From: Bacilli bacterium
GTDB lineage: Bacteria; Bacillota_I; Bacilli_A; ML615J-28; CAG-313
Assembly: GCA_045589955.1 (NCBI GenBank)
Contig: JAZNQD010000009.1
Location: forward strand, 118,814-182,813
Direction: 5' to 3'
DNA length: 64,000 nt
Part shown: in pieces, positions 4,060 to 25,884 of the stretch
Layout: every line of letters starts with the position of its first letter
Numbering within the stretch: position 1 is the stretch's first letter
Position numbers and translations under genes: made by a program
Notes under the pieces: generated by a model
The model's input: the letters and a program-made list of their open reading frames with translations, nothing else
Told to the model about the DNA's origin: nothing
Database searches by the model: none

Positions 4060-4061
4060 AT

Positions 4062-6237: not shown

Positions 6238-6259
6238 AATACCCCCTTTAAACAATCTT

Positions 6260-8688: not shown

Positions 8689-9711
8689 TTATTCTCTCAT
8701 TCTGTTTATAGCCAAATTCTTATTTATAATTTTTAACAATAGTTTTAAACCTTCTAAAGCCTTTTCTTTTGGGTGTCTAACAAATTCTTGATAACGAATA
8801 CGAATAAAGCCCATATAATTATCATGTTCACTCACACGAATTTTGTAACTATCAAGTTTGTCCCATTCGGCTTGTGTATATTTCATACCTTTAGTTTCAA
8901 TAGAAAAAATGTGGTCAACCGTTTGTGAATATAATCTAAACACTGAAGTATCTGCCACCAATTTACTGAAATACTGTATCATTATATTTTTAAATAGACT
9001 CATCTTATAACGATTTTGTAAAATGATATCCAAACGTCTAAGATATTCTTTGGCCCAATTATACGCTTTAATACCATAACCGTCTTCTTTAGTTATCATC
9101 ATTCCCATATCGTATTCAGGTACTAAAGAATGGGCAGTATATAAAACATAATCGTAAATTGAATAATCACGAGGTAACAAAAACATACCATGTACGTCGT
9201 CAATCATTATTTTGAAATTTACATTGTGTTCTTCTAATTCTTTTTTTAACTCAACATAAAAGTTTTGAGGTGTTATTTCACCAGTAGATAGCTGTGTACC
9301 AATAATATATACAAATACTTTTTTATAACCTTTTGTTTTTTGTACGATTTCTTTTGTCTTATATGAACGAATATCCTGTTCTGATTGTACAAATAACACA
9401 TTCTTACAATTTTCTAAGCATTTACGTACTGAACCATGCTCATATTGAGTAGAAATCACTAAGGTATCATCATCAACTTCTCTTTCAAATACTTGTTCGA
9501 TTAATGCGGTTCCACTATCATCAAATACCAAGTTTCTATCATGTATAGATACATTAGCAAATGGCATTCTGTTAAAATATTCTTGACACAAAGCCAAATA
9601 TTGCTCATCAGAAACAATTTCTGGTTCACCAGTTCTGCCTATACCTAGAAGTTCATTTTCTTCTTCACTAAACGGTTGAAAATCCAAATACCATTTAATC
9701 AATTCATCCAT
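8689..9711 (-). CDS. PLP-fold (class V aminotransferase / cysteine desulfurase-like) paralog A
   Basis: Motif string IIGTQLSTGEITP ... IMIDDVHGMF ... DYVLYTAHS resembles the fold-type-I pattern h..ETGhi.P ... hDavQs.G ... D.hs.SgHK (recalled from memory). The Schiff-base Lys position reads S. Track start is GTG at 9720; ATG at 9711 has SD GAAGGTG. Confidence 0.35.
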   Translation of the reverse strand: MDELIKWYLDFQPFSEEENELLGIGRTGEPEIVSDEQYLALCQEYFNRMPFANVSIHDRNLVFDDSGTALIEQVFEREVDDDTLVISTQYEHGSVRKCLENCKNVLFVQSEQDIRSYKTKEIVQKTKGYKKVFVYIIGTQLSTGEITPQNFYVELKKELEEHNVNFKIMIDDVHGMFLLPRDYSIYDYVLYTAHSLVPEYDMGMMITKEDGYGIKAYNWAKEYLRRLDIILQNRYKMSLFKNIMIQYFSKLVADTSVFRLYSQTVDHIFSIETKGMKYTQAEWDKLDSYKIRVSEHDNYMGFIRIRYQEFVRHPKEKALEGLKLLLKIINKNLAINRMRE

Positions 9712-9712
9712 A

Positions 9713-10759
9713 TCAGTCACCTTCTACAACTTGTTGTATAAAATCATCAGTTAAACTACTAGTCAAAGCTTTATCGATAATTTTTAAGCACTTAGGCAAC
9801 AAAGAATCATTATTTATAAACCAATGACTACGTAAAGAAATAAAACCTTCCCCATCAGTATCTGTTGTAATCAATAAATTTATTTTATTACACAATGCAA
9901 CACTATTTTCAGAAATATTAAACTCTTTTAAACGTAAATAAAATATATAAGGTGCAACTAATTCTCGTGATATTTTATCTAAGTTTTTTATATATTTACT
10001 GTAATATTGAATGCACAATGCTCTAAACAAATTAAATTTATTTGCACGTGATATCACAATTTCTAACCGTTTTAAATACAATTCACCCCAATTATAAGCG
10101 TTTATCCCTAGAAATTGTTGCTTACTAATTAGAATTCCCATATCAAAACCCATACAAACAGCATGAGCAGTACCTATTACGTAATCAAATAAAGTATAAT
10201 CACGTGGAATTAAAAACATACCTTGTACATCATCAAGTATTAGAATATGTTGTACATCATTTTTAATAAAAAGATTTTTCAACTCTACAAAAAACTCTTG
10301 AGGTGTTATTTCACCGGTAGCATTTTGAGTCCCAATTATATAAACAAATACTTTTTTATATTGTTTAATGCTCTGCTGTATTTTATGAAAATTAAATGCT
10401 CGAATATCATTGTATTGATTTATTTCCAAAACATTTTTATACTCATTTATAATATTTTTAACACTTGGATGTTCAGCATTGCTAGTAATAATTAAAGTAT
10501 CTTCATCGACATATTTTGCAAATAATTTCTTTATAAACGTAGTAGCAGATACCTCGAAAGTCAAAAAACTATTATTGATCGTACAATTTGAAGCAAGCAT
10601 CTTGTCAAAAAATCTCATAGATACACTTTTAAAAGCTTCGGTATTAAATTTTGGCTCGATATAACTTTTTTCAGACAAGTCATGTGATAAATTTGTCTTA
10701 ACGATTTCTTTATCAACATCACTTAAAGGTAAATATGTATTCCACCAGTTTAAAAGCAT
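9713..10759 (-). CDS. PLP-fold-like paralog B
   Basis: Paralog of 8689..9711 (IIGTQNATGEITP ... ILDDVQGMF ... DYVIGTAHA). Track start at 10762 is TTG; ATG at 10759 overlaps the upstream stop (TGATG). Confidence 0.35.
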   Translation of the reverse strand: MLLNWWNTYLPLSDVDKEIVKTNLSHDLSEKSYIEPKFNTEAFKSVSMRFFDKMLASNCTINNSFLTFEVSATTFIKKLFAKYVDEDTLIITSNAEHPSVKNIINEYKNVLEINQYNDIRAFNFHKIQQSIKQYKKVFVYIIGTQNATGEITPQEFFVELKNLFIKNDVQHILILDDVQGMFLIPRDYTLFDYVIGTAHAVCMGFDMGILISKQQFLGINAYNWGELYLKRLEIVISRANKFNLFRALCIQYYSKYIKNLDKISRELVAPYIFYLRLKEFNISENSVALCNKINLLITTDTDGEGFISLRSHWFINNDSLLPKCLKIIDKALTSSLTDDFIQQVVEGD

Positions 10760-11706
10760 CAAATCTCTAAGTCCCGTATCATTTGTTTATCGCATATCGC
10801 ACATTTATTACTATCAATATATGCACTATAAACAGATAAATGCCCACAATCCATGATATAATCTATTCTCGGATTATATGTTTCTGTACCATTTTCTTTA
10901 TTTCTATTTACTACTGCATCATGTTCTTCATACTCACAAATTAATGTATCTGCACGATATTGAATATTGAACAATTTGTCATAAAAAGCTAAACCTTCTT
11001 CTCGCTTTACTTTCTTTAAAAAACGTAAGAAGGCATCACGTTTCGGAAAAAAGTTACCGAGTACTTGATTTGTATGCTCTTTTGAAATATACATACCTTC
11101 TGGACCAGCACACAATTTAACAAACATCGAAGTATTATATGTTGACATTAAATTTTTAAATGAAAATTCATCTGCCAGATATTTGTCTATTAAATCGCCG
11201 GTTATAATTGTAGTTGTATTAAACTTTATTTTGGGATAGAGTTTTCCTATATTCAACATATGATATGACCAATTATCTTCCATTTTTTTAGTATGAAAGC
11301 GTCCCATTGTATCATATGAGGTTAATAACCAAAAATTATCCTGATAATCTTTGAAAATATCTAAAGTGGTATATAAATCAGTTTGTTCGCCTATTGTAAG
11401 TGTTGCATATAGCCAAGTTGTTTTTATGTAACCAGCTTTCATCAAATCGGCGGTCGTTTGCATTAATTCAAAAAATTTATTCTTTACAGCCTCTGTATTT
11501 AACTGTCCTTGAAAAAATTCACCGCCAATAAAAGCAATAGTATCATACTCCTTATAAATATCTAAATTTTTTATTGTAGATAAGGCTTTTTCTAAATTAT
11601 ACAGCTTTGTTTCTTCCGAAGTAAATCTATTTGTATTACCTAAGTAACAAAAAGTACATTTAGAGTTACATTCTTTCCATAATTCAAATTGTAATTGCTT
11701 TCCCAT
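10759..11706 (-). CDS. radical SAM protein, family 1
   Basis: ELWKECNSKCTFC, FIGGEFFQGQLNTEAV, C-terminal DCGHLSVYSAYIDSNKCAICD. Confidence 0.75.
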   Translation of the reverse strand: MGKQLQFELWKECNSKCTFCYLGNTNRFTSEETKLYNLEKALSTIKNLDIYKEYDTIAFIGGEFFQGQLNTEAVKNKFFELMQTTADLMKAGYIKTTWLYATLTIGEQTDLYTTLDIFKDYQDNFWLLTSYDTMGRFHTKKMEDNWSYHMLNIGKLYPKIKFNTTTIITGDLIDKYLADEFSFKNLMSTYNTSMFVKLCAGPEGMYISKEHTNQVLGNFFPKRDAFLRFLKKVKREEGLAFYDKLFNIQYRADTLICEYEEHDAVVNRNKENGTETYNPRIDYIMDCGHLSVYSAYIDSNKCAICDKQMIRDLEI

Positions 11707-11708
11707 AT

Positions 11709-12626
11709 TTAATTTCCATATAATTTAAAAAACATTTGTGCAACATCATACATCTTGTTATTAGAATCTATGAAGCCTATATCATATTTTTTAGTTTTAT
11801 CACTTAATTCACATCTACCGTCGCCGCTTCGTCTATCTTCTGCTACTCTAACTTTACCATTTTCTATAAAAAACAATGTGTTAGACCTCAATTCCATAGA
11901 CAAAAAAGAATCTCTATTAATCAAATCTTTATGAATAGCTTTCTTTAAAAATTTCAAAAAAGTTTCTTTTTTAGGAAAAAACCCCGGCAAATCCTTTTCA
12001 CAAGCATATTTATCTACATAATATAAGCCAGAAGAAGGCTCTATGTAATCAACTGAAGTATTAAACACTTCTTTAAAGGCTTTTAAATCAAATTCATCAT
12101 TTAATACAGCATTTAAAAACCATTCTGTTAAAATAATTTCAGTATGAAGACGTAACTCTGGATAGTTATCTTTTAAAAATAACATATTACGCTTCCACAA
12201 TTCTTTATGTTCTTGAGTTTTAAATCTATACTTGACATCAAAAGAGGTACATAATACAATTTTATCTAATAATTGTATTTTACGTAAATAATCCAAAAAT
12301 GGTATTAAATCAATATTAATATCGTAGATTAATGCCGCGGTTATGTATATCTTTGAAAAATTAAGTTTAGATACATCATAAAATAAATTATAAAAAACAG
12401 GCTTTATAAGTGGATCTAATTCGCCATTGAAAAATTCACCACCAATAAAGCCTATCTCATCGTGTTTTATGATTTGTAACTCTTTTAATTTAGCCGTAAT
12501 AAACTGTAAAGATTGTAACTTATCAATTTTAGGTTGACCTTTATTACAACAAAATTTACAACCTATCTTACAATCTTTCCATAATTCAAATTGAACAAAT
12601 GTATTTTCATTTTTAAAATTAGTCAT
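11709..12626 (-). CDS. radical SAM protein, family 1b (no C-terminal Cys cluster)
   Basis: ELWKDCKIGCKFC, FIGGEFFNGEL. The C-terminus lacks the CGH..C..CD motif. Close paralog of 12619..13542. The printed sequence differs from the track by 1 nt near the start. Confidence 0.7.
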   Translation of the reverse strand: MTNFKNENTFVQFELWKDCKIGCKFCCNKGQPKIDKLQSLQFITAKLKELQIIKHDEIGFIGGEFFNGELDPLIKPVFYNLFYDVSKLNFSKIYITAALIYDINIDLIPFLDYLRKIQLLDKIVLCTSFDVKYRFKTQEHKELWKRNMLFLKDNYPELRLHTEIILTEWFLNAVLNDEFDLKAFKEVFNTSVDYIEPSSGLYYVDKYACEKDLPGFFPKKETFLKFLKKAIHKDLINRDSFLSMELRSNTLFFIENGKVRVAEDRRSGDGRCELSDKTKKYDIGFIDSNNKMYDVAQMFFKLYGN

Positions 12627-13542
12627 TTACAAGCTTACACAATTCAGTTGCTATATCTTCCATAGAATCTTCGGAATCAATAAAACCTAATTCATATTTT
12701 TTAGATGTATCCCTACATTTTACTCTAAAACCTGGTTCACGTCTATCTTCATAACAAACGAAATCCCCACAATCTAAGTGATATATTCTACTTGCTCTGA
12801 TTTGATACGAAATTAAGCAGCTTAAGTCTATTTCTTTGTTTTTTAAACCAGCTTTCTTTAAAAATTCAATAAAACTTTTCTTTCTTGGAAAAAATCCAGG
12901 ACAAGCTTTTTCACAGTCCGCTTTTGTATTATAGTACATACCAGAAGAAGGTTCGATATAATCTACACGTGTTCTATATTTTTCACAAAACTCTTTAATA
13001 CTAAACGTATCATTTAATACTGCATCAATAAAATGTTGCGTCATAATAGTTTCAACATGTGTCTTTAAATCAGGATAATCTTTTAATAAAGCAAGCATAT
13101 TACTTTCCCATAACTCTTGCTTACCAGGTATATTAAAACGATATTTTAAATCATAAGAAGTACACAATAAAACCTTATCCATTATATTAATTTTACGCAA
13201 ATAATCTAAAAATGGCAATAAATACGGTTTCATATCATAAATTAAAGATGTAGCAACATAAATTTTATTAAAATGCATTCCTGCTAATTTATCTATTAAC
13301 TTATAAAATAATGCTCTAACTTCTTCATTTTCGATTTGATTATCAAATATTTCTCCACCGATAATACCTACTTCTTCATAATCAAATACTTCTGGATCAT
13401 CTAATTTATTTAACGTAAACTCTAATGCCCATTTTTTATCAACGGACATTTGACAACGCTCTGAACAAAATTTACAGCCATTTCTACAATCTTGCCATAG
13501 CTGATATTGAATAAACTTATTAGGTGCAATATATCTTTCCAT
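12619..13542 (-). CDS. radical SAM protein, family 1b
   Basis: QLWQDCRNGCKFC, IIGGEIFDNQ, YIEPSSGMYY region shared with the 11709 ORF. TAATG start/stop overlap. Confidence 0.7.
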   Translation of the reverse strand: MERYIAPNKFIQYQLWQDCRNGCKFCSERCQMSVDKKWALEFTLNKLDDPEVFDYEEVGIIGGEIFDNQIENEEVRALFYKLIDKLAGMHFNKIYVATSLIYDMKPYLLPFLDYLRKINIMDKVLLCTSYDLKYRFNIPGKQELWESNMLALLKDYPDLKTHVETIMTQHFIDAVLNDTFSIKEFCEKYRTRVDYIEPSSGMYYNTKADCEKACPGFFPRKKSFIEFLKKAGLKNKEIDLSCLISYQIRASRIYHLDCGDFVCYEDRREPGFRVKCRDTSKKYELGFIDSEDSMEDIATELCKLVND

Positions 13543-14408
13543 TACGCATACTCACTAAATACATCTAATAAATCACAACAGAAGCAGGTATTTTTTTCTG
13601 AATATCTTTTAAAGTTAACAGAATGCCCACAATCAGACATTGCGCAACTACAAAACTGAAATTCGTTATCTTTATACATATAAAGCCATTTTTCTTGTGT
13701 TATGGTCATGTTTGGCACATATTTAGCTAGATAGCCAGGTAAATCTAAATCTACGCGTTTAAGGGCTTTAAAAATGGCATTACGAGGAGCAGTTAATTCA
13801 GAATCTAAAACTATATAAGGTATTAAATTAATCCAACATTTATATTCAGCTGTAAATTCACTTAATTTAAAATTGCCATCTAAAATTTCTTGACAAACCT
13901 TTTTTGTAAGAATTGTATTTGTAACTATATTACATTTAGGATATACTCGATTAATCCATTTTAAATTAGATAGCATCAATTGTCTATCATCTTCAGTTCT
14001 GAATCTTCCTTCTAAATCATATGATGTAGTAAATTTAAGTCTATCAAATAAATTACATTTGGATATCATATTAAGCATGGAATTTAAACCGGTTAAATCT
14101 TTATAGATTAAGTTAGTATTTATATATAACAAATCTATAATACCAACTTCCATCAATCCAACGATTTGATTAAAAAATTCTTCTAAAGCATTGAAATCAC
14201 TAGGTTTATCAAATATCTCACCACCACAAATGAGTATATGACTACCTTTTATGAATTTATCACTATCTATAAATGATAAAACTTCATTTAAAATAAATTT
14301 TCTTTTTTCTTGATTGTATAAACGGGGTTTTTCGCGTTGGAAACAAAACTTACAATTATTATTACAGTTATCCCAAACGAGAAATTCATAAATCTTTTTA
14401 TATTTCAC
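13542..14408 (-). CDS. radical SAM protein, family 1
   Basis: LVWDNCNNNCKFC, ICGGEIFDKP, C-terminal CAMSDCGHSVNF...CFCCD. Start is GTG at 14408, preceded by GGGGGG. Confidence 0.7.
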   Translation of the reverse strand: MKYKKIYEFLVWDNCNNNCKFCFQREKPRLYNQEKRKFILNEVLSFIDSDKFIKGSHILICGGEIFDKPSDFNALEEFFNQIVGLMEVGIIDLLYINTNLIYKDLTGLNSMLNMISKCNLFDRLKFTTSYDLEGRFRTEDDRQLMLSNLKWINRVYPKCNIVTNTILTKKVCQEILDGNFKLSEFTAEYKCWINLIPYIVLDSELTAPRNAIFKALKRVDLDLPGYLAKYVPNMTITQEKWLYMYKDNEFQFCSCAMSDCGHSVNFKRYSEKNTCFCCDLLDVFSEYA

Positions 14409-14428: not shown

Positions 14429-15001
14429 TTAATCCGCGGATAATGTAACCGAATATCTACAAGGTTGAATTCTAAACGTATGTTTTATTACATTCATCAA
14501 ACTATTTATAATATCATTTACATCTTGAGCAGTATCTAAACGAAAATATAAATCTATATCGGCATCTAATATCTTAATAGAAGGATAAGTTGTATTGCCA
14601 GTGTAATAAACTAAATATTTATTAGTGTTAAATTGACTAACTGTAAAACAGAATTTGGTACTACAAAAAGAAACCATGTCGTTTATAAAATTAATAAATT
14701 CGCGTGGTGGAATATTCGTATTTAGTTTTGTATCCACTTTTATCGTTTTTAAGAAATTAGTCATATCAGTATCAATAGTGGCACCGGTAACTTTAGCAAT
14801 AGATTTTGTAATAGTGTGTGTACAATATCCGTTTACACCAGCTTTTTTACCGTTATTAGAAATAATCACTTTATTACTATATCCAGATTTAAATTCTGCT
14901 GGTAAAGAATTATATTTATTATCTACGTTTTGACAATTGGTTTTAGCGTAGTTTTTTACCAGATTAACTATTGTATTGTATGTAATATTTCCTATTGGCA
15001 T
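14429..15001 (-). CDS. family-B paralog (untailed) of the Ser-tailed proteins
   Basis: Starts MPIGNITYNTIVNLVKNYAKTNCQNVD...LPAEFKSGYS; paralogous to the 16988 ORF and to the N-terminal cores of the 15002 and 17529 ORFs. Its ATG directly abuts the stop of 15002..15691 (TAAATG). Confidence 0.6.
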   Translation of the reverse strand: MPIGNITYNTIVNLVKNYAKTNCQNVDNKYNSLPAEFKSGYSNKVIISNNGKKAGVNGYCTHTITKSIAKVTGATIDTDMTNFLKTIKVDTKLNTNIPPREFINFINDMVSFCSTKFCFTVSQFNTNKYLVYYTGNTTYPSIKILDADIDLYFRLDTAQDVNDIINSLMNVIKHTFRIQPCRYSVTLSAD

Positions 15002-15691
15002 TTAAATATCCATATAAGCAATAAATGTAGATGAACTAGAAGAACAGCTTGAGCTTGATGAAGATGAAGATGAGGAACTAGAAGAACTCGAACTTGAACT
15101 AGAATAAGTTAAAAGAGTATTTGCATAGTGAATGTTCGATGTGTTGTTAACAGCGGCAAGTAACTCATTTACACTAGTTTGTATTTCTGTTGCACTAAAA
15201 TCTATATCATCATGACGTAAAGACACTGTTGAAAAATTACTAGCGTCATCATCGTAAAAGATAAATGTTCCTGCCCCAAAACTATTTGTAACAGCAATCA
15301 ACTTAACAGCCAAAAAAGATGCAAAGTTATTATAAAAATTCATAATACCTTTGAAAGACACAATTTCAGTCGGTTTAGTTGCAATTCCACGTAATTTCAA
15401 AAAGGAATTAAGTTGATTTTTTACAGTAGATGTAGAAACAACTTGCAACTTTGGATCATTAACTTGAGAATGTTGAATTAATGTCTTGGTTGTACGGGTA
15501 AAGTTACTATTTCTACCACCTATGACAAAAGCCACGGCCGTTGTTTTATTATTCCAACTATATCCGTGTTGTAATTGTTTTGGTACATCACTTCTAAACT
15601 TATCAATATTACAGCATTTACTCAAAATATATGATTGAGCACTATCTAATAAATCTTGATAAGTAATTGTATTATTGCTCTTTATCGCCAT
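15002..15691 (-). CDS. family-A protein with C-terminal poly-Ser/Cys tail (putative modification substrate)
   Basis: 229 aa ending ...[37 protein letters not shown] GAGGG upstream. N-terminal core shares the ITY...C.N.D...GYS pattern with the family. Confidence 0.7.
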   Translation of the reverse strand: [229 protein letters not shown]

Positions 15692-16400
15692 TAAAAAGTC
15701 CCTCTAAAAAGCCATCTAATAAAGTTACAGAGACAATACTCTTGCTTTGTAAAGCAATGATACATTCAATAGCATTATCTAAGTAAACACATTCTTCTGT
15801 AGAAAACTTTTCGGATACAGAAAAAATACCAGAAAGAGTTAACAAATCAGTTGACATGAAAATTGTACGATAAATCTTAGGTAATGGAATATGCGTATCT
15901 AACGGTGTATAAGTTGTTTTATTATAAGATTTAAACAACGAAATGAAATAAATACTTAACTGACGAATAAATTTGTTTAAACTAGATTGTAATTCAAGTT
16001 TTAAATCTAACAAATCTTCAATAGATGATACATAAATATTTTCATCATCAAAAAAGTCATCTTCTAAAGTATTATACAATTTAATCAAGTTAATAATATT
16101 CAAAATCATCAATGGATCACACAAATCTTCACGATTCATTGACATTTCGAAAATTCTAACCAAAGTTTCAAGTTCAACACCTTTAAGGAATAATTTAACA
16201 TTATTTCTTGCAAGTTCCGTTAACTCTGTTTCTAAACAATAAAGCTTTTCTAAAAATGGTATAATATCCATAACTTCAACGTATTTATCTACTCTAATTT
16301 CAATAAATTCATTTTCAGCAAAAGAAATTCCTTTAGTTCCTTCAACTAAAGTTTTAATATCATCACGAATTGCTTCATAGTTACGTAAATTTTCAGTCAT
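15672..16400 (-). CDS. hypothetical protein
   Basis: 242 aa. Strong SD AAGGAG. Confidence 0.5.
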   Translation of the reverse strand: MTENLRNYEAIRDDIKTLVEGTKGISFAENEFIEIRVDKYVEVMDIIPFLEKLYCLETELTELARNNVKLFLKGVELETLVRIFEMSMNREDLCDPLMILNIINLIKLYNTLEDDFFDDENIYVSSIEDLLDLKLELQSSLNKFIRQLSIYFISLFKSYNKTTYTPLDTHIPLPKIYRTIFMSTDLLTLSGIFSVSEKFSTEECVYLDNAIECIIALQSKSIVSVTLLDGFLEGLFNGDKEQ

Positions 16401-16447
16401 AAAAGCTCCTTTTTATAAATATCTAATGCTTATGTATTTAGAACTAA

Positions 16448-16975
16448 TTAAGCCTTAGGAAAACCAGCCAAGTATTCATCATAAATTTCTGAAATATCAA
16501 ACTTATTATCAGATACCGTCAATCTAGTGTTTATAAAATCATAATGGTAAATATATACAGAATCACGATATTTTAAAGCAGATTTTGCATCGTCTTTCCA
16601 CTTTTTAACAGAAGAATTATACCAAGATATCATAGTATAAATATTATCATAACCATATTTATTACTAAATTTTAATAAAGCATCTTCAATATAATTTTCA
16701 GCTTGTATAATAAAGTTATGATATACGATTTCTTTATCTAGCTTATTTTGTTGAGCTTCTATTTCATTAATAACTGAGTTTTTTAATACAATTTTACCTT
16801 TAAATTCAACAAAATCTTCATTAGTAGCGTATATATCTTTACCGTACCATTCTAAATTATCTTTATCTGCAACGTATTTTTCTGCTAATTTTAAAGAAGG
16901 TACCCACTGAATATTTCCAGTCGAATCAATAATATAAAATTTGTCAGCGTTTTTATAATCCCCAAGAATAGACAT
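16448..16975 (-). CDS. hypothetical protein
   Basis: 175 aa. SD AAAGGAG. Confidence 0.5.
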   Translation of the reverse strand: MSILGDYKNADKFYIIDSTGNIQWVPSLKLAEKYVADKDNLEWYGKDIYATNEDFVEFKGKIVLKNSVINEIEAQQNKLDKEIVYHNFIIQAENYIEDALLKFSNKYGYDNIYTMISWYNSSVKKWKDDAKSALKYRDSVYIYHYDFINTRLTVSDNKFDISEIYDEYLAGFPKA

Positions 16976-16987
16976 ATTTTCTCCTTT

Positions 16988-17527
16988 TTATGCCAATGTT
17001 ACGCTATATGTACAAACATACGGTCTAATATTTTGTCTTACCACACTTGTTATAAAATTAATTAAAGTTGTAATATCTGCATCATCAATAAGTCGATAAG
17101 TGGTAGTCGTAGTAATATTCTTTAGTGATGAATAAGTAGTATTTCCTGTTAGATATACCATGTAATTTGTAGTTGAATATTGACTAGCTGCTACTCCAAT
17201 TTTAGTACTACAGAATGAAATGATATCCTCAACGAAATTTAAAAATTCGTTTGCTACAATATTAGTATTTAGTTTATCATTTACCTTTATTGTCGTTAAA
17301 AAATTCGTCATATCTGTAGCAACTGTTGTACTAGCTACTTGAGATACGCCTTTTGAAATTGTAACTGTAGACTTAGCGTTTGTAGTGATTGTTGTTACTA
17401 CACTATATCCTGTTTTAAAACAAGCCGGTAAGTTAGCAATGGTTGTATCAAAATTCATACAATTTGCCAAGATCCAACTTTTAACGTGCTCAACTACAGT
17501 ATTATAAGTTATTGCACTAAGAGCCAT
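16988..17527 (-). CDS. family-B paralog (untailed)
   Basis: Starts MALSAITYNTVVEHVKSWILANCMNFD...LPACFKTGYS; paralog of 14429..15001. Follows the 17529 ORF with a one-base gap. Confidence 0.6.
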   Translation of the reverse strand: MALSAITYNTVVEHVKSWILANCMNFDTTIANLPACFKTGYSVVTTITTNAKSTVTISKGVSQVASTTVATDMTNFLTTIKVNDKLNTNIVANEFLNFVEDIISFCSTKIGVAASQYSTTNYMVYLTGNTTYSSLKNITTTTTYRLIDDADITTLINFITSVVRQNIRPYVCTYSVTLA

Positions 17528-17528
17528 T

Positions 17529-18209
17529 TTAGATATCCATATAAGCTATAAACGTAGAAGAACTAGAAGAACAACTTGAACTACTCGAGCTTGATGAAGA
17601 CGAAGAGCTAGAAGAAGAGCAACTTGAACTATAAGATAGCATTACGTTTACTAAGCGATGTTGAATTGGTTTATTGATACAGTTTAACAAATCAGTAAAT
17701 GATACCTTTATTTGATCAGCCGTAAAGTTTGCATCTGCTGGAGTTAAATTACTTAAAGTTGGAAAATTAGTTGCTTCACTATTATAGAAAACGTATTTAT
17801 TATTTGAATAAGCACTTGTTAAAAAAACTACTTTGGTTGCAATAAATGCCGAAACAACATTACAAAAAATCATTAAATTTTTAAATGAAATCAATTCGCC
17901 AGTATTATCTGCAATTCCATTTGAAGTAAGAAAAGAATTAAATTGAGAATTAACTGTAGAAGATGGTACTGCTTTTAAAATTGTATCGTTTACCGTAGCA
18001 GTAGCTGTTAATGTAAATGTACCTGTTGTACTATTACCCGTTACATATGATACTTCCTTACTAGCCACTTGCCAAGAACTATTATTTACAAAAGCACTAG
18101 GTAAACCAGATGGAAGTGCATCAATATTTTGACAAACCTTTTTAATCTGAGTTAATACAGCATCAACAGCGTCTTTATATTTAATCGTTTGTCCTGTTGC
18201 GAGAGACAT
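17529..18209 (-). CDS. family-A protein with C-terminal poly-Ser/Cys tail (putative modification substrate)
   Basis: 226 aa ending ...[37 protein letters not shown]. The last 14 residues are identical to those of 15002..15691. First gene of the minus-strand operon. Confidence 0.7.
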   Translation of the reverse strand: [226 protein letters not shown]

Positions 18210-18274: not shown

Positions 18275-18691
18275 ATGAATGAAAATCTAAAAAATAGAAG
18301 AAAATTAGCATATTACATAAACAAATGGGACGACATAAATCTACCATATCATGAAGATTACAAAAATATACCCGAACAAGTGATTTCTTTTTTCAAAACT
18401 GAATCTAACTTGGTATATCCGGCAAAGACAATCTTCGTAGCTATAATTTATGCTAAATGCTTGGAACAATACTTTGATGTGCCTTTTTATGAAAGTTTAG
18501 ATGATATCGAATTGTTATTTGATGACAAATATTTTAACAAGTATACATATTCTCAATTCAAAAATGAATATGATTATATACTAAGTACTCTAACAGATAT
18601 TTTAAACTATCCGGCAGCACAAAAAACGATAGACTATTTTAAAAAAGAGTTTCTCTATGGAATTGATTATAAAACCAACCGGTCGTTGTAA
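18275..18691 (+). CDS. hypothetical protein
   Basis: 138 aa. First gene of the plus-strand operon. Overlaps the next gene by 35 nt. Confidence 0.45.
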   Translation: MNENLKNRRKLAYYINKWDDINLPYHEDYKNIPEQVISFFKTESNLVYPAKTIFVAIIYAKCLEQYFDVPFYESLDDIELLFDDKYFNKYTYSQFKNEYDYILSTLTDILNYPAAQKTIDYFKKEFLYGIDYKTNRSL

Positions 18692-19613
18692 TTTTAATTG
18701 TAAATTTTGCAGTGCGAATTTATTAGATATTAAACACAGTACAACAGTTTCTACTCAATTAAAAACTGTTTTAAATACAATAAAACCTGATAATATTATT
18801 TTTACCGGTGGAGATCCATTACTTGTAAGTCCTGACTATTATAATGAAATCTTATCGCTTGGAAACTGGAATATTGCTTTTACTACCAATTTAAAAGATT
18901 TTTATTTAAATCCCACAAAATGGATATCACTGTTTAAAAATCCGAGAGTTGGCATAGGAACCTCTTTTCAATATGGAAACAAAAGATTATGGGATAACAA
19001 CGCTCCTTATACCGAAAAACTATTTATTGATGTTATGCAAAAATTTTATAATGAAATTGGATATACTCCTCCTTTTATTTCATTAATAGATACAGATAAC
19101 GAAGATAAAGCTTTGGACCATGTATACTTAGCTAAAAAATTAAATACAAAATGTAAACTTAACGGTACATTGCCTCTTGGTAAGTCAAAATGTTTTTATC
19201 CAACTTATAAAATGATAAAAATATGGTTAGAAATCAAAGACTTAGGTTTAGAAGAATATTTAGATACACAAATACAGTTTTATGAAGGGGGTTGTAATTT
19301 CAACACAAGCCTTTATTGTGAATCTACTATTCGTACATTTTGGTTAAACGAACATGGTGAAGTACAATATGGAAATTGTGAAGATTGTTCAACACTAGGG
19401 CAACGTATTCCTTTAGATAAAATCAGACCAATACCGGTAAAAAAACAAATTGAAATAAATGATACTATAAACGATAAATGTTGTTATTGTGAATTATTTA
19501 AATTGTGTAACGCTTGTCGTTCCTTACAACGCATAAATAAACAAACCCCCGAGCACTGTGAAGAAATGCTAAAATTAAAACCAAGAATAATAGAGGCAAA
19601 ATGGAAGATATAA
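18657..19613 (+). CDS. radical SAM / SPASM-like protein, family 2
   Basis: GRCNFNCKFC, FTGGDPLL, C-terminal CCYCELFKLCNACR Cys cluster. Confidence 0.75.
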   Translation: MELIIKPTGRCNFNCKFCSANLLDIKHSTTVSTQLKTVLNTIKPDNIIFTGGDPLLVSPDYYNEILSLGNWNIAFTTNLKDFYLNPTKWISLFKNPRVGIGTSFQYGNKRLWDNNAPYTEKLFIDVMQKFYNEIGYTPPFISLIDTDNEDKALDHVYLAKKLNTKCKLNGTLPLGKSKCFYPTYKMIKIWLEIKDLGLEEYLDTQIQFYEGGCNFNTSLYCESTIRTFWLNEHGEVQYGNCEDCSTLGQRIPLDKIRPIPVKKQIEINDTINDKCCYCELFKLCNACRSLQRINKQTPEHCEEMLKLKPRIIEAKWKI

Positions 19614-20401
19614 AGACATTATATGCTATCCCACATTATAATTGTAACTTAGCATGTCCACATTGTGATTTATTTAAAAAACAAACAAATTATGATGAAG
19701 AGCATTTTATGTATTCATTAAATAATGTAAAAGCAGAAGAAATCGTTTTGTTTGGTGGTGAACCTCTTTTATATAAAGACAAATTACTAAAAATACTACA
19801 AACAAATAAAATATCATCTATTTCAACAAATCTATTAAACATTGATTTAGATATCTTAAATAATCTAAAAAAATATAATATACACATAGCTACATCATGG
19901 AATAATATACGATTAAATAAACAACAATATATAACATGGATAAATAATATACATAAAATAAATATATATAATATTGACTGTATTGTACTTATAACTCTGA
20001 CGGATGATCTGATACACAATACTGAGAAACTGACTGATACGCTGACTGATTTAGATAAAACAAGAATAAGAGGTGTATTATTTGAACAACTATTGGATTA
20101 TTCTAAAGACCAAAGTTTTTATGAAAAAGTAGACACGTTCCTATGTAAGATATCCGAAAATTGGCAATATTCGTTCAAAAACTTAATTATTGACAAATTA
20201 AATACTTGGAATTGTGATTGTAAAAAAACATATACTCTCGAACCAACCGGAATAATCCGTAAAGGTTGTCCACAATATATTCAACCACAAATAGTCAATG
20301 AATGCTTATCATGTTCTTTAGCAAATATATGTAAACCTTGTCCGTTACAAAAGCACTGTTCTTTTCCTAAAAAATTATACGTGATGTTTAAAAATGCTTA
20401 A
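19601..20401 (+). CDS. radical SAM / SPASM-like protein, family 2
   Basis: HYNCNLACPHC, FGGEPLL, C-terminal CLSCSLANICKPCPLQKHC. Confidence 0.7.
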   Translation: MEDIKTLYAIPHYNCNLACPHCDLFKKQTNYDEEHFMYSLNNVKAEEIVLFGGEPLLYKDKLLKILQTNKISSISTNLLNIDLDILNNLKKYNIHIATSWNNIRLNKQQYITWINNIHKINIYNIDCIVLITLTDDLIHNTEKLTDTLTDLDKTRIRGVLFEQLLDYSKDQSFYEKVDTFLCKISENWQYSFKNLIIDKLNTWNCDCKKTYTLEPTGIIRKGCPQYIQPQIVNECLSCSLANICKPCPLQKHCSFPKKLYVMFKNA

Positions 20402-21404
20402 TACTAAATATGCTTTAGATATTGTACTTTTTTCTGACTGTAACTTAAATTGTTTACATTGCTTTCAAACACACATAAAAAATGATATAGATAAACAATA
20501 CTTAAATGACTTGCCACAAATTATACATAAACATTTATTAGAAAAGCTTAAAGCAAATCCTAATATAAATGAAATAACTTTATCATTACGTGGCGGTGAA
20601 ATTTTTCAAGATAGATTTTCCGAAGACCAATTAGAACAATACCTTAATGTCTTTAAATTCGTCATACATAATTCACACGAATATTACCCTCATATAAAAT
20701 TTAATTTACATTGTATGTCAAATGGAATTTTTACAAAAACGAATCGTATCATAGATTTTTTAAAACATAACAATATTTCAATATCTTTATCTTATGACGG
20801 TTACGGTAGATTTAATACAAATACACTTTCTAAATTCAAAGAAAATTGTTTGGAACTAAAATCATTTATTAAAGACATTAGTATAACCTTAACCAAGCCT
20901 TCTGTTGAACAATACCTTTCCTCTGATGAATTACTTTTCTTCACTAATCATAATCTATTACTGGACTTTAACTATTACATTCCAACAAAAAATATCGATG
21001 ACTTAATAATATCAGATGAAGTATTATACGCCTTTTACAATTACTTATTAGAAAAGCATATATTTAATTGCAAATATTTAATCGATTTATTTGAAAGTCT
21101 TCTTACAAATAAAAAAATATATCCTTCTTGTAATTGTCAAAATACCGAAGTTTTAGTTAATGGAAAATATTATACAAACTGTACACTTAATAGTTCTTTA
21201 TCAAATATACAAATAAAAAACAAAGCTTTAAACAAAAGACAATGCTTATTTTGTGAAAATTATAATAATTGTTATGGTTATTGTTGGTTATCTATTCTTC
21301 ATGATAAATATATAATTTCAGAATGTCCACACAAAAAACTATTAATACAGATTAAAACGAACCCAATTTATATCAATAATTACTTAAAATGGAAAACACA
21401 ATGA
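20394..21404 (+). CDS. radical SAM / SPASM-like protein, family 2a
   Basis: SDCNLNCLHC, RGGEIFQD, C-terminal RQCLFCENYNNCYGYCWLSIL. Confidence 0.75.
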   Translation: MLNTKYALDIVLFSDCNLNCLHCFQTHIKNDIDKQYLNDLPQIIHKHLLEKLKANPNINEITLSLRGGEIFQDRFSEDQLEQYLNVFKFVIHNSHEYYPHIKFNLHCMSNGIFTKTNRIIDFLKHNNISISLSYDGYGRFNTNTLSKFKENCLELKSFIKDISITLTKPSVEQYLSSDELLFFTNHNLLLDFNYYIPTKNIDDLIISDEVLYAFYNYLLEKHIFNCKYLIDLFESLLTNKKIYPSCNCQNTEVLVNGKYYTNCTLNSSLSNIQIKNKALNKRQCLFCENYNNCYGYCWLSILHDKYIISECPHKKLLIQIKTNPIYINNYLKWKTQ

Positions 21405-22507
21405 CTTTCTCAATTATTCCATTCTATACTCAACCTAAATCATATGAAATAGCTTGTATGTTATTTGAAAGCTGTAATCTTCGTTGTAAATTTTGCTTTG
21501 AACCACATACCAATAATAAAATTGATACAGCATATATCGAAAGTATTCCAGATTTATTATTACCAGAATTCGAAAAGGTATATCAAAAAGATCCTACTAT
21601 TGAACAAATATATCTTATGTTATGGGGAGGAGAAGTTTTCTATGATAGTTTATCCGATGAAGTATTTCAAACATATTATCGGTTTGTAGATAAGTTAACT
21701 GCATTGTTTAATGAACATTTTCCTAAAGTCAAAATACTATTTTCTTGGTTATCAAATGGTGTATTTACAAAAAGAGAACGCGTTGAAAAGATAGTAAGAT
21801 ATTCAAAAGGTATAATAAATTTCAGTTATGATCCAGTAAATCGATTCTCATCACCAAAACAATTACAGATTATGTTAGAAACGGCTATTTATTTTAAAAA
21901 AATTGGATTAGGCGATAAAATTTCAATTACTTTAACAAAAGATTCTATACACGGTTTTATAACTAACAAATCACATTTAATATTCTTTAATAGTTTAGGA
22001 TATAACATAGATGTTAATTACTATATAGCCAATCCAAACTGGAAAGAATTATTACCAACAGATAATGAAATATTTACATTTATTAAATGGGCTTTAGATA
22101 ACCGTTTATTTAATATGAAAATCTTACAAAAACTCTTACTTCCATATCTAAATCAACCGGTCTCACATTATTGTGATTGTAAATATTGTTCACAGCTAAC
22201 CTATGGTGAATGGAGTGTAGATTGTGCAAAATGTAGCTCTGTATTACCAGCAAAAGATTTTTATGGTGAAGCAACTGAAATTATAAATGAAGAAAATACA
22301 AATGATATAAAAGCAACATTAGGTATACGAAAAAGAAAATGCTTATTGTGTAAATATTATAATTCTTGTCAAATGCCTTGTTGGATTTCAATTTTATTTA
22401 AAGGTTTTGAACCCACAGAGTGTTTTTATAAACAAGCTTTTGAATATATCGAACAGCATCCTACTTTTGTAAAAGAGTTTGAAAGGTGGTTGAAAAACAA
22501 TGATTAA
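21389..22507 (+). CDS. radical SAM / SPASM-like protein, family 2a
   Basis: ESCNLRCKFC, WGGEVFYD, RKCLLCKYYNSCQMPCWISIL. An alternative ATG at 21401 gives an ATGA overlap with the upstream stop. Confidence 0.75.
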   Translation: MENTMTFSIIPFYTQPKSYEIACMLFESCNLRCKFCFEPHTNNKIDTAYIESIPDLLLPEFEKVYQKDPTIEQIYLMLWGGEVFYDSLSDEVFQTYYRFVDKLTALFNEHFPKVKILFSWLSNGVFTKRERVEKIVRYSKGIINFSYDPVNRFSSPKQLQIMLETAIYFKKIGLGDKISITLTKDSIHGFITNKSHLIFFNSLGYNIDVNYYIANPNWKELLPTDNEIFTFIKWALDNRLFNMKILQKLLLPYLNQPVSHYCDCKYCSQLTYGEWSVDCAKCSSVLPAKDFYGEATEIINEENTNDIKATLGIRKRKCLLCKYYNSCQMPCWISILFKGFEPTECFYKQAFEYIEQHPTFVKEFERWLKNND

Positions 22508-23585
22508 TATTCCTTCAGAAAATAGATTTGGTTTTGATTGCTTACTTTTCGAGGCTTGTAATTTAAATTGTACGTTTTGTTTAGAAGCACATAATAATAC
22601 TAAAATTGATTATAATTGGATTCAGTCTATTCCTTTACGTCTAGTAGAAAGATTTAAAAAAGAATATGTAAAATTTCCAAATACTAAATTGATTACTATT
22701 AGATTATGGGGTGGAGAACTGTTTTATGATGCTTTACCAGATTCAATATTCCAAGTATATACAGATTTAGTACAATCTTTTATTACTGAATTTGGAATAG
22801 CCTTTCCTGATATTACACTTTCATTTGCTTGGGTATCAAACGGGGTATTCACAAAAACAGAGCGCTTAATTAAATTATTAAAAAACACAAATAGTCTGTT
22901 AAATATTAGTTACGACCCGGTTGGCAGATATAAGACTAAAAAACAAGAAGAATTAATGTTAGCTAATTGTAAATTATTTACGGACTTAAATCTCTTAGAT
23001 GAAATTTCAATAACTTTAACCAAACCTAATATTCAAGCTTATATTACTAATAAATCTAGATTATTTGATCTTAATTTTGTAAAAAAGATAGATATTAATT
23101 ACTATATACCAAATCCACTTTGGAAAGAATTATTACCAAATGATGAAGATTTGTTTATGTTTTTTAAATGGTGTGCCGATAATAGATTTTTTACAATTTT
23201 AGATTTTAAACGAGTTTTAGATACTTTAACTAAACCAAATGAAAAAGTAGAATTAGTATGTAATTGTCATAAACATCTATCTGCTTGTAAAGACTGTATT
23301 ACCTATAATTGTGTTACAAGCTCTTCTATTTTACCACAAAACCTATTTTATGATAAATATACAAATGAAATAAACGAAGATAATGTTAGTGATATAAAAC
23401 GTAAATTAAGTTTGCATAAAAGAGGTTGTTTATTCTGTGAATATGCTAACATTTGTCCTAAAATCTGTTGGACTTCAATTTTATTTAAAGAATATATAGC
23501 AACAGAATGCCCAATGCAACGTTTATATAAATATCTACAAGACAATAAACAAATATTAGAGGATTATAAAAAATGGAGTTATTAA
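22500..23585 (+). CDS. radical SAM / SPASM-like protein, family 2a
   Basis: EACNLNCTFC, WGGELFYD, RGCLFCEYANICPKICWTSIL. SD AAGGTGG. Confidence 0.75.
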   Translation: MINIPSENRFGFDCLLFEACNLNCTFCLEAHNNTKIDYNWIQSIPLRLVERFKKEYVKFPNTKLITIRLWGGELFYDALPDSIFQVYTDLVQSFITEFGIAFPDITLSFAWVSNGVFTKTERLIKLLKNTNSLLNISYDPVGRYKTKKQEELMLANCKLFTDLNLLDEISITLTKPNIQAYITNKSRLFDLNFVKKIDINYYIPNPLWKELLPNDEDLFMFFKWCADNRFFTILDFKRVLDTLTKPNEKVELVCNCHKHLSACKDCITYNCVTSSSILPQNLFYDKYTNEINEDNVSDIKRKLSLHKRGCLFCEYANICPKICWTSILFKEYIATECPMQRLYKYLQDNKQILEDYKKWSY

Positions 23586-24481
23586 ACGGTTTATCTATAA
23601 TGCCCTCTTTATATTGTAACTATAACTGTGAGTATTGCTATTTAGGGGATTTAAGAAAAAACAAAACTCTTTTAGATTTAGATATACTCGCTAATCGTTT
23701 AAATGAAATAACACAAAACTATACAATTCAACATACAACTTTATATGGTGGTGAAATATCTCTATTACCACAAACATACTTAAATGATTTATTGCAACTT
23801 GTAAAAGATTATAATCCAGCGTTTGTAACAAATTTATCCCAAGAATGGTTTTTAAATTACTGCTTAATAAACAATGTTAAACTTAGTATATCGTTAAATG
23901 AAGAAAGAACCAATTACAATAAAACGTTGCAGATTCTTAAGACGTTAAAAGGTATTAAATCAATTTGTTTATCTGTTGTTGTTTTACCTAGTTTACTAAA
24001 GAAAGATTCTTTTGAAATTCTAGATTTTTTTGAAGATTTAGGGTTTGATGTTATTTTTATTCAATATCACCCTTCTATTCATTCTAAAGTCGTTTATAAT
24101 ATCACAACAAAAGATTACAGTGATTTTTTATTACGTATCCTAAAAGCTAAATACGAACGCGACTACAAATTCAAAATACAAAATGAGATTGTGCTTAGAG
24201 ATACAACATACCGAGCAACGGCTGACAGTTTTATGTTTATTAATCAAAATGGTAATTTCAGTTCAATTAAATATAACGAGAAAGAAGAAGAATATTTCGT
24301 AGAATTTAATACTTTACAAGAATGGAAAGACTTTTGTAAGCAAGAACAAAAACTATATTATACAAAGTGTCATGCTTGTAAATATTATAATAAATGTAAA
24401 GCTGAACATTTAGTCAATCTAGAAAAAGATAATTGTTCAGGTCTATATAATTTATTAGAAGAATATTCACAAATTGGATAA
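23573..24481 (+). CDS. radical SAM / SPASM-like protein (paralog of 3157..4059)
   Basis: LYCNYNCEYC, YGGEISLL, C-terminal CHACKYYNKC...CSGLYNLL. SD AGAGGA. Confidence 0.75.
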   Translation: MELLNGLSIMPSLYCNYNCEYCYLGDLRKNKTLLDLDILANRLNEITQNYTIQHTTLYGGEISLLPQTYLNDLLQLVKDYNPAFVTNLSQEWFLNYCLINNVKLSISLNEERTNYNKTLQILKTLKGIKSICLSVVVLPSLLKKDSFEILDFFEDLGFDVIFIQYHPSIHSKVVYNITTKDYSDFLLRILKAKYERDYKFKIQNEIVLRDTTYRATADSFMFINQNGNFSSIKYNEKEEEYFVEFNTLQEWKDFCKQEQKLYYTKCHACKYYNKCKAEHLVNLEKDNCSGLYNLLEEYSQIG

Positions 24482-24487
24482 CAAGAG

Positions 24488-25882: not shown

Positions 25883-25884
25883 AT

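Follow-up and report, generated by a model that had tools for sequence, protein, structure and literature searches.

Two copies of a gene pair, A and B, were found in the 64,000-nucleotide stretch of DNA that was analysed (the window). The A proteins end in a run of serine and cysteine residues, and genes for radical-SAM enzymes (R) lie around both pairs. The favoured reading, given a somewhat better than even chance, is that A and B make up a phage protein, probably virion-associated, and that the Ser/Cys tail is the substrate of the radical-SAM set encoded with it. The module, in which a gene U is followed by A, B, and the R genes, is common, strongly conserved, and entirely unannotated.

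Tailed gene pairs in the window

The A1 gene (17529..18209, minus strand) encodes a tailed protein of 226 aa. Its body covers residues 1-193, the Ser/Cys run residues 194-218, and the end motif TFIAYMDI residues 219-226. The run is encoded by 25 codons (17556..17630, minus strand) and reads SSS-C-S15-C-SSSSS. The terminal motif (17532..17555, minus strand) follows the family-wide consensus [FY]-I-[AGV]-Y-[MF]-x-x. B1 (16988..17527, minus strand), an untailed protein of 179 aa, starts 1 nt after the A1 stop codon. The second tailed protein, A2 (15002..15691, minus strand), has 229 aa, with its Ser/Cys run at 15029..15103 and its end motif at 15005..15028. This run also has 25 residues; it opens with S19 and contains one Cys only. 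B2 (14429..15001, minus strand), an untailed paralog of 190 aa with 45% identity to B1, follows A2 with a gap of 0 nt.

These four minus-strand ORFs had been listed in a first-pass annotation of the sequence, and the ORF calls and translations contain all of them. The untailed paralog 0-1 nt after each tailed gene and the identical 14-aa C-terminus of A1 and A2 were likewise found as described. The tail strings given there had the Ser-rich run and the fixed end right, with one surplus Ser in each string. Two embedded Cys had been reported for both tails; A1 has two and A2 a single one. A and B had also been treated as two separate families. Instead, one profile fits both, and A1 and B1 share 27% identity across the whole body (E = 8e-10), as remote paralogs do.

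Duplication and selection

The duplication of the gene pair is supported. The protein bodies have diverged, as was first noticed, with 44% identity between A1 and A2 and nearly the same value for the B proteins. The second A-B copy is as divergent as orthologs from other phages, and with a body dS of 1.3 the duplication is old. The last 15 codons of A1 and A2 are identical at 40 of 45 nt, with synonymous changes at the other 5. The near-identity reported for the junction DNA holds for these codons and stops there, as the DNA at the start of B is not conserved between the two loci. In the same 15 codons dN is 0 and dS is 0.94, against dN 0.69 and dS 1.31 in the body. Strong purifying selection on the shared end, rather than recent homogenisation, is indicated; both had been offered as explanations.

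An alternative source of the common tail and junction would be gene conversion in the recent past, or an artefact of assembly or of microsatellite sequence. A direct repeat of 77 nt (15001-15077 / 17528-17604), 79% identical overall, is in keeping with such an origin. However, the synonymous divergence of the tail end matches that of the body. At conserved residues, the codons of the tail end are identical in 64% of cases versus 46-54%, a difference that is not significant (Fisher p = 0.41); for the Ser run the figure falls to 22%. The Ser runs of A1 and A2 mix TCN and AGY codons, TRF detected weak short repeats only (scores 30-39), and the architecture is seen in 177 distinct proteins from independent assemblies, so the tail is not an artefact. 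Conversion or artefact is therefore extremely improbable, and is effectively refuted by the synonymous-site analysis and the family-wide conservation. The local duplication had been singled out as the notable event; A-B is instead the conserved unit of a widespread module.

Composition of the tail across the family

At 50% identity, 458 representatives of the A/B body were counted. The A homologs form 62 database clusters, every one of which is tailed. A search for further Ser-tailed proteins with such an end had been proposed, and 177 distinct tailed members were found. Their Ser/Cys runs (3220 tail residues) consist of 88.2% Ser, 11.5% Cys, and 0.3% other residues. The [FY]-I-[AGV]-Y-[MF]-x-x motif invariably follows the run and is the best-conserved part of A. 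Run length ranges from 9 to 32 residues across the family and shifts by whole units among close relatives, for example 215 versus 206 aa inside one 90% cluster. At least two Cys were counted in 78 of 85 tails, and one or none in the other 7. The usual count is 2-4 per tail, and neither the number nor the spacing of Cys is conserved. Apart from C26, no Cys cluster is conserved in the A body.

A scan of prokaryotic genomes (596 Gb) found the pattern SSSSx[FY]I[AVG]YM just 19 times, which argues that the tail is not due to chance. The matches in this genome collection come solely from metagenome bins that hold phage-like contigs. Cys is one of about six single-nucleotide neighbours of the TCY and AGY Ser codons. 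Yet the other residues are so rare in the run that only Ser and Cys can be tolerated, and these two appear interchangeable. Conversion of both residues into a single product would lead to such a rule, and so would a chemical need for both; it is not expected of an ordinary linker. The tails, each a pure Ser/Cys run with [FY]I[AGV]Y[MF] after it, do not contain the sulfatase recognition motif C/S-x-P/A-x-R.

An AlphaFold2 model of A1 has a mean pLDDT of 81.5 for the body and a pLDDT below 50 for the tail. The body is a confidently predicted fold without a known match, and no structural relative was found that places A in the virion.

Gene order and partner genes

All 25 loci that were fetched through A and are long enough to show gene order have U-A-B followed by 3-7 R genes. 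In each of the three loci fetched independently, through R-I homologs, U, B, and a tailed A were all present within 8 kb. These 28 informative loci, in which the order U, A, B, and then 3-7 radical-SAM genes is constant, all lie on phage-like contigs of 100-313 kb. U (15672..16400, minus strand), upstream of A, encodes an acidic protein of 242 aa (pI 4.4) and overlaps the start of A2 by 20 nt. Its family was found in 24 of 26 sources and has no homolog in Pfam, PqqD-like families included, or in the PDB. The stop and start codons of U, A, and B overlap or abut, which suggests co-translation of stoichiometric partners. Between the two pairs lies a gene for an accessory protein of 175 aa (f24; 16448..16975, minus strand). 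It is limited to the window and the loci L007 and L017, and has no Pfam or PHROG match.

For A, B, U, and f24, nothing over noise was obtained in Pfam, PHROGs, or NCBIfam. A weak match of A1 to PHROG 232, 'baseplate wedge' (E = 0.007), was not reproduced in 22 family members and was rejected. GenBank phages gave no match in megablast and tblastn searches with the region, A1, U, R-I, and R-III; the tblastn set comprised 50,697 GenBank phage records. A scan for promoters and terminators found no more of them than expected from shuffled sequence. The literature and database annotations that were searched contained no account of this system.

Two SufS-like paralogs (9713..10762 and 8689..9720, minus strand) have class-V aminotransferase-like motifs, EH, DDVQG, and T-A-H-A or T-A-H-S, with the PLP lysine replaced. 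The family is present in 18 loci, and the lysine is absent in 17 of 17 members. The NCBIfam SufS model (TIGR01979) matches at E = 5e-6, with 25.6 bits against a cut-off of 475, and the family profile has no match among PDB sequences. As the lysine is missing and no PDB match was obtained, a role of the pair as active desulfurases was rejected as unproven.

The gene directly upstream of U encodes a tail-fibre C-terminal domain in 14 loci (PHROG 19602 / 6427). The window has no adjacent tail-fibre-like gene, and the tail-fibre-like gene f5 is absent from it. In some superfamily members, a Gly-rich ALK/LTK-type domain (PF12810, E = 9.5e-11) replaces the tail and ends in a similar G-Y-V-x-I strand. 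The combination expected of a gp38-type tail-fibre tip adhesin, a Gly-rich GRM or ALK_LTK_GRD-like part with a gp38-like attachment domain, was not found.

A divergently transcribed module (18275..27862, plus strand) holds seven more radical-SAM genes, one of which matches a SPASM model, and C15 (24488..25168, plus strand). C15 encodes 226 aa and ends in YTCHQNCHSSCHSSRGRR. The arrangement is repeated in L007, L014, and L017. This module is probably a second substrate/enzyme set, and any link to A/B is hypothetical. The only gene of the region with relatives in cultured jumbo phages (~30% identity) is the SPASM-type one of this module (26882..27862). C15 was also considered as a third A/B paralog and was rejected, as hhalign aligned 10 residues only, with a probability of 0.3%.

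Radical-SAM enzymes

The R-I gene (13542..14408, minus strand; 288 aa) has a GTG start, and in other phages it always lies directly after B. Two R-IV paralogs (12619..13542 and 11709..12626, minus strand) have the CxxxCxxC motif and lack a C-terminal CGH...CxxC; this subfamily occurs in 16 loci. R-III is present as copy a (10759..11706, minus strand; 315 aa), which has a Pfam match, and copy b (6260..7219, minus strand; 319 aa). R-II (7760..8686, minus strand) encodes 308 aa, and both R-II and R-III occur in 20 loci. The R genes thus fall into four orthologous subfamilies, each in 16-20 loci. CxxxCxxC is found near the N-terminus of all seven minus-strand R-type ORFs. Six of the seven match Pfam Radical_SAM, all under the gathering score. 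Altogether, 14 radical-SAM genes surround the pairs, which is the main context absent from the first-pass annotation.

The R genes constitute a new radical-SAM family. R-I alone has 399 sequence clusters, and at 56-73% identity it is much better conserved than the A body at 30-45%; the end of the A tail is nearly invariant. A CGH...Y...C..C motif (3 Cys + His) is common to R-I, R-II, and R-III, and R-IV is without it. The R proteins have no SPASM match in Pfam or NCBIfam, no recognisable RiPP recognition element, and no N-terminal extension. The model of R-I is a radical-SAM barrel. Its closest structure is anSME, to which 246 residues align, and other structural neighbours include SkfB, CteB, and SuiB. 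The closest enzyme by sequence is YydG, a remote match (profile against the PDB YydG sequence, E = 5e-8, R residues 4-176). R-I is therefore nearest to enzymes that modify proteins or peptides, by structure through anSME and by sequence through YydG. The anSME family models do not include these proteins, as R-I scored 16.7 bits with PRK13745 (cut-off 484) and TIGR03942 listed no R protein. TIGR04078 (cut-off 300 bits) matched no member of the R family, and R8-type proteins reached just 23-28 bits.

Proposed mechanism and alternatives

The family is large and unannotated and always lies beside four or more radical-SAM enzymes in giant gut-type phages, so an undescribed pathway of protein modification most likely acts on the tail. 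The idea that it is a modification target rather than a fold, put forward at first reading, fits the predicted disorder, the strict Ser/Cys content, and the constant radical-SAM neighbours. The proposal also draws on the conserved set of R subfamilies, the selection on the tail end, the abutting U, A, and B genes, and the tail-fibre domain encoded upstream of U in 14 loci. What was observed is the anatomy, conservation, synteny, and enzyme class; that the tail is a substrate, how it is changed, and that A/B sits in the virion are proposed here from genomic association. A and B would be two subunits of one phage protein, translationally coupled and probably associated with the virion or tail fibre. 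A would have a folded alpha/beta body of ~190 aa bearing a disordered C-terminal appendage. This appendage of 9-32 residues would permit only Ser or Cys and be closed by the hydrophobic consensus end. R-I to R-IV would abstract hydrogen atoms from its Ser/Cys residues, with the conserved end, and possibly also U, as the docking element. The likeliest chemistry would be an anSME-like C-beta oxidation, in which Ser and Cys give the same formylglycine-type aldehyde. The remaining R paralogs may then add further radical steps. Next likeliest would be thioether cross-links from Cys, or C-alpha epimerisation, which alone would not explain the Ser/Cys-only rule.

Some observations argue against this proposal. 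The 7 of 85 tails with one Cys or none count against obligatory Cys-based cross-links. The substrate model is weakened by R proteins that match neither an RRE nor SPASM and whose auxiliary motif is absent in R-IV, by tails that lack the sulfatase motif, and by the number of paralogous enzymes, 4-7 for one simple repetitive substrate. The window without an adjacent tail-fibre-like gene and the A body without a virion-type relative also speak against it.

Polyserine linkers occur in some glycoside hydrolases. The tail of A could similarly be a flexible spacer that tethers a docking peptide, FIAYMDI, to a partner such as B, U, the tail fibre, or the capsid, while the radical-SAM enzymes act elsewhere. 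Its predicted disorder, its variable length with whole-unit changes, and the strong conservation of its end are compatible with a tether, and so is the Gly-rich structural domain that relatives carry at the equivalent position. However, Gly, Thr, Ala, Asn, and Pro should all be acceptable in a spacer, and so few residues other than Ser and Cys, together with so much Cys, are not expected of it. The run also differs from a polyserine interdomain linker in having only 7-12 residues beyond it. A spacer gives no reason for the constant linkage to radical-SAM genes, which was seen from both search directions, and this explanation is unlikely. It is quite improbable that the tail is a swinging arm. 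Its Cys would then bear persulfide sulfur, an Fe-S cluster, or a metal, exchanged with the radical-SAM enzymes and the SufS-like protein, and A/B would be the scaffold of a pathway, not its end product. The SufS-like gene in 18 loci, the 2-4 Cys of most tails, and the many Fe-S enzymes encoded alongside would agree with a carrier. Against it stand the PLP-binding lysine missing throughout the SufS-like family, whose profile matches no PDB cysteine desulfurase, and the variable Cys, which some tails hold once or not at all. The lack of a conserved Cys cluster in the body, C26 apart, also counts against it.

The preferred reading, a tail modified by radical-SAM enzymes, can be extended tentatively, although the extension is somewhat doubtful. 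In jumbo phages of gut-type anaerobic habitats, at least four radical-SAM enzymes, the lysine-less PLP-fold protein, and U may turn the poly-Ser/Cys tail of a tail-fibre-associated virion protein into a new polymeric modification. One possible product is a series of formylglycine-type aldehydes that undergo further cross-linking or cyclisation. The modified tail could serve as a covalent adhesive or a protease-proof structural element where the virion contacts its host.

Comparison with known systems

To our knowledge, radical-SAM maturation of ribosomal products concerns small bacterial peptides and a few enzymes, and none is known for phage proteins. If the extended reading is true, A would be the first case of a viral structural protein matured by radical-SAM enzymes, and its modification would be of a new type. 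The Ser-or-Cys-only rule of a substrate-like element points to a specific chemistry, and study of the module could bring to light new reactions of radical-SAM enzymes with protein-bound Ser. It could account for the dozen radical-SAM genes in some giant phages. It could also provide a genetically encodable tag and the enzyme set to equip proteins with reactive groups.

The Campylobacter phages CP220 and CPt10 have 11-12 clustered radical-SAM genes of unknown function (PMC2853527). Since A, U, R-I, and R-III have no tblastn match in the GenBank phage records, the present module is of a different family.

Sactipeptides, ranthipeptides/SCIFF, and the CXXX-repeat and Cys-every-fifth systems likewise have a radical-SAM gene adjoining a product with a Cys-containing low-complexity C-terminal region. 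Their repeat units are gained and lost, as here, and SkfB, CteB, and SuiB are shared as structural neighbours of R-I. However, their substrates are peptides of 40-60 aa, whereas A is a folded protein of ~200 aa (200-300 aa in the family). They use one enzyme, compared with 4-7 paralogs here without detected SPASM or RRE. Their core is Cys-rich; the A tail is almost pure Ser, and Cys is dispensable in some members. The A/B module also has no protease or exporter, and it is found in lytic-type jumbo phages, often by tail-fibre genes. The radical-SAM core with CxxxCxxC is that of RiPP-type systems, and the short leader-core precursor with an RRE is not found.

The anSMEs (AtsB / anSMEcpe) have a complete SPASM domain, which carries two auxiliary clusters, and recognise C/S-x-P/A-x-R, whereas the R proteins have at most 3 Cys + His. 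YydG/EpeE, which acts with YydF, is the best sequence relative with a solved structure; like R, it has ~320 aa and its cluster motif near the N-terminus. Its substrate is a peptide of 49 aa, in which Val and Ile are epimerised, and its resemblance to R is remote and under the family cut-off. QhpD/QhpC, in which a radical-SAM enzyme cross-links a protein subunit, and the proteusins with large NHLP leaders have no sequence relationship to the module, use other residue chemistry, and are bacterial, not viral. They are nevertheless a precedent for radical-SAM action at many positions of a sizeable protein, or of a long leader with a C-terminal core.

Tailed A proteins and their untailed partners

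A first-pass annotation had claimed four minus-strand ORFs as a duplicated gene pair, and all four are present in the window. A1 (17529..18209, 226 aa) and A2 (15002..15691, 229 aa) encode proteins ending in a run of Ser and Cys and a hydrophobic end motif. Their untailed partners, B1 (16988..17527, 179 aa) and B2 (14429..15001, 190 aa), follow after 1 nt and 0 nt, respectively, in agreement with the claimed spacing of 0-1 nt. The tails are real; however, the strings first reported for them contained one Ser too many each, and A2 has a single Cys. The sequence near the end of A1 reads Y-SSS-C-S15 and onward, and that of A2 Y-S19 and onward; each run has 25 residues. A1 and A2 share 44% identity and B1 and B2 45%. 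A and B are remote paralogs across the whole body, the protein without its tail (27% identity, E = 8e-10). The A body has few charged residues and much Asn, Ser, and Thr. A and B share a C-x-N-[IV]-D motif that follows the first helix.

The Ser runs mix TCN and AGY codons, and TRF found only weak repeats of 6-12 nt in them (scores 30-39). These results rule out a microsatellite or the assembly artefact that the first-pass annotation had considered. The runs are coding sequence, and what shaped them acted on the protein.

A database search with A1, as the annotation had proposed for proteins with such ends, gave 62 clusters, all metagenomic and some on contigs of 160-290 kb. All 62 have the Ser/Cys run, and the terminal residues after it fit [TMVFWYI][FY]I[AGV]YM[DEK][IL]. 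A superfamily profile built from A and B bodies, tails removed, was searched against 1.84 billion proteins and found 458 representatives (E <= 0.001). These are of three kinds: tailed, untailed B-type, and a few with a Gly-rich domain replacing the tail. In P0342, P0339, P0263, P0325, and P0332, this C-terminal domain (ALK_LTK_GRD or Gly_rich_2) is 200-250 aa long; P0342 matches PF12810 ALK_LTK_GRD (E = 9.5e-11) and also PF21722. It ends G-Y-[VI]-x-I, which is similar to the tail end motif [FY]-I-x-Y-M.

Tails were delimited without presupposing their composition in 177 distinct tailed proteins. The 3220 run residues were Ser (88.2%), Cys (11.5%), or anything else (0.3%; 7 Thr, 2 Asn, and 1 Pro). 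Cys is one of about six amino acids that are one substitution from the TCY and AGY codons of Ser. Although it is only about a sixth of these neighbors, it far exceeds all other residues combined (11.5% against 0.3%), which means that the run accepts no residues but Ser and Cys. Run length was 9-32 residues (median 21) in 85 proteins selected more strictly by regex. Most tails had 2-4 Cys, and seven of the 85 had one or none. Close relatives may have or lack entire units such as CSSSSSSSS, as in one 90% cluster with proteins of 215 and 206 aa.

Age of the duplication

Nei-Gojobori estimates for A1 and A2 were dN 0.69 and dS 1.31 in the body, and dN 0 and dS 0.94 in the last 15 codons; for B1 and B2 they were dN 0.46 and dS 1.45. 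Where both proteins have the same residue, the codon also agreed at 46% of positions in the A body and at 54% of those in B. The figure was 22% within the Ser run and 64% across the final 15 codons of A (Fisher p = 0.41 vs the bodies). The dN/dS check suggested by the annotation thus shows a fixed peptide end, but its dS and the codon identities speak against the proposed recent homogenization. The reported near-identity of the junction DNA holds for 40 of 45 nt at the end of A, where all five differences are synonymous, but it stops before B. This similarity arises from the identical peptide and AT-biased codon usage, not from recent homogenization. The duplication is roughly the same age as the divergence among phages with the module.

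Phage setting and gene neighborhood

The window is phage-like; it is about 28% GC and resembles known phages only remotely. It encodes a GroEL-type chaperonin (34656..36302, plus strand; PHROG 5725, E = 2e-127) upstream of both the portal gene (39251..41047) and a prohead protease-like gene (47730..50519). The window has 14 ORFs that carry a CxxxCxxC motif at the N-terminus, and the A-B pairs are central among them; 13 of the 14 match Pfam Radical_SAM at E <= 0.005, mostly below the gathering score.

In total, 33 related loci were fetched; ORF clustering covered the first 25 (L001-L025) and the initial 32 kb of the window. The conserved order is U, A, B, and then 3-7 genes of the radical-SAM family R. 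U, the family of the acidic protein encoded at 15672..16400 in the window, was found in 24 clustered sources; its gene overlaps the A start. A SufS-like gene was present in 18. The usual pair is A-B; A-A pairs, both tailed, occur in L006, L020, and L024, and B-A in L021 and L022. Starting from three R-I homologs picked without reference to A, U with a tailed A and B was found within 8 kb in all three loci reached.

In 14 loci, the protein encoded immediately upstream of U has a C-terminal domain of tail-fibre type (PHROG 19602 or 6427), and some loci have further tail genes nearby (Phage_tail_C, Gp10_C). Such a tail-fibre-type gene was looked for in the window and is absent. In L004 (Logan SRR5371429 contig, 39.5 kb), the module genes are fragmented under code 11 and the translation of the look-up gene differs from the query; a stop codon is probably recoded in this phage. 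In L031, an IS605 OrfB/TnpB (Cas12f-like) gene (10650..11825) is inserted between the radical-SAM genes of the module.

Enzymes of the cluster

The 100 distinct R proteins form four orthologous subfamilies, each in 16-20 loci. In most loci, R-I (13542..14408, 288 aa) is the gene that immediately follows B. R-II (7760..8686) has about 309 aa, R-III, with two window copies (10759..11706 and 6260..7219), about 319 aa, and R-IV (12619..13542 and 11709..12626) about 306 aa. A C-terminal motif, CGHS..Y..Y.DSD.C..CD, is common to R-I, R-II, and R-III and missing from R-IV. R proteins reached no curated NCBIfam or SPASM model, and the homologs of R-I (399 clusters, 56-73% identity) include none that is named.

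Two SufS-like tandem paralogs (8689..10762, minus strand) carry the E-H, D-D-V-Q-G, and T-x-H motifs of class-V aminotransferases. The PLP-lysine position is T-A-H-A or T-A-H-S in 17 of 17 family members, and the profile had no match among PDB sequences. These proteins may be a PLP-fold pseudoenzyme or have a novel activity conserved within the module.

A second module (18275..27862, plus strand), divergent from A1, has seven more radical-SAM genes; the block is also present in L007, L014, and L017. One of these seven (26882..27862, plus strand) matches a SPASM model and, unlike the R family, has relatives at about 30% identity among cultured jumbo phages, namely Ralstonia RSF1, Burkholderia FLC6/FLC8, Agrobacterium Atu_ph07, and a Pseudomonas phage. 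The module also encodes C15 (24488..25168, 226 aa), which has the C-terminal end YTCHQNCHSSCHSSRGRR, and its relatives share Y-T-C-H-x-N-C-H-x-x-C-[HY]-x-x-R-[GS]-R-R. It looks like a separate candidate substrate with its own tail; homology to A was ruled out by hhalign. Two more conserved genes of unknown function are at 25169..25882 and 25885..26889.

Inside the radical-SAM cluster is a NodU/CmcH-type carbamoyltransferase (4624..6255, minus strand; Carbam_trans_C, E = 1e-56). It belongs to no conserved family of the related loci and may be a lineage-specific addition. Two further radical-SAM paralogs, of family R8 (3157..4065, minus, and 23573..24481, plus), lie one at each end of the 25-kb cluster. 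None of their best NCBIfam matches comes near the cut-off; among these matches are MoaA (E = 2e-7), AmcB (E = 5e-7), and YydG (E = 4e-5 and 2e-6).

Possible role of the tail

The tail is most likely the substrate of the R enzymes, because of its strict Ser/Cys rule, invariant end motif, disorder, and unbroken linkage to a set of enzymes that is dedicated and highly conserved. The end motif, perhaps also U, would be the docking element, and B would be a partner subunit without a tail. Less well supported than this substrate role is a plain linker with an anchor peptide, followed in likelihood by an arm carrying sulfur or metal. Gene conversion or artefact comes last, with both the synonymous divergence of the tail end and the mixed codons of the run counting against it.

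For a substrate tail, several reactions can be considered. The interchangeability of Ser and Cys would be best explained by a reaction that erases their difference. The enzyme anSME oxidizes either Ser or Cys to formylglycine, and it was the top structural neighbor. In most tails, Cys could plausibly form thioethers, but this does not fit those with one Cys or none. Epimerization would fit the YydG similarity but leaves the composition rule unexplained. The four conserved enzyme subfamilies suggest several different steps. The tail-fibre neighborhood, and the fact that some relatives have a Gly-rich domain where the tail would be, suggest that A and B may have an exposed structural role.

Comparison with known systems

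The logic of the A/B-R module is similar to that of radical-SAM/RiPP systems with Cys-rich repetitive cores and of anSME acting on a protein. However, the module has no short leader-core peptide and no recognizable RRE, Pfam and NCBIfam models detected no SPASM domain in the R family, the sulfatase motif of anSME substrates is absent, and the family HMM cut-offs of known families are not reached. Therefore, the module is not a member of any of these families. Many clustered radical-SAM genes of unknown role are present in the cultured Campylobacter phages CP220 and CPt10 (PMC2853527), in which no homolog of A, U, or R was detectable. No description of an A/B-R system was found in the literature. 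The module would be a case of a ribosomal product matured by radical-SAM enzymes in which all components are new, and there is a fair chance that its chemistry and biology are new in kind.
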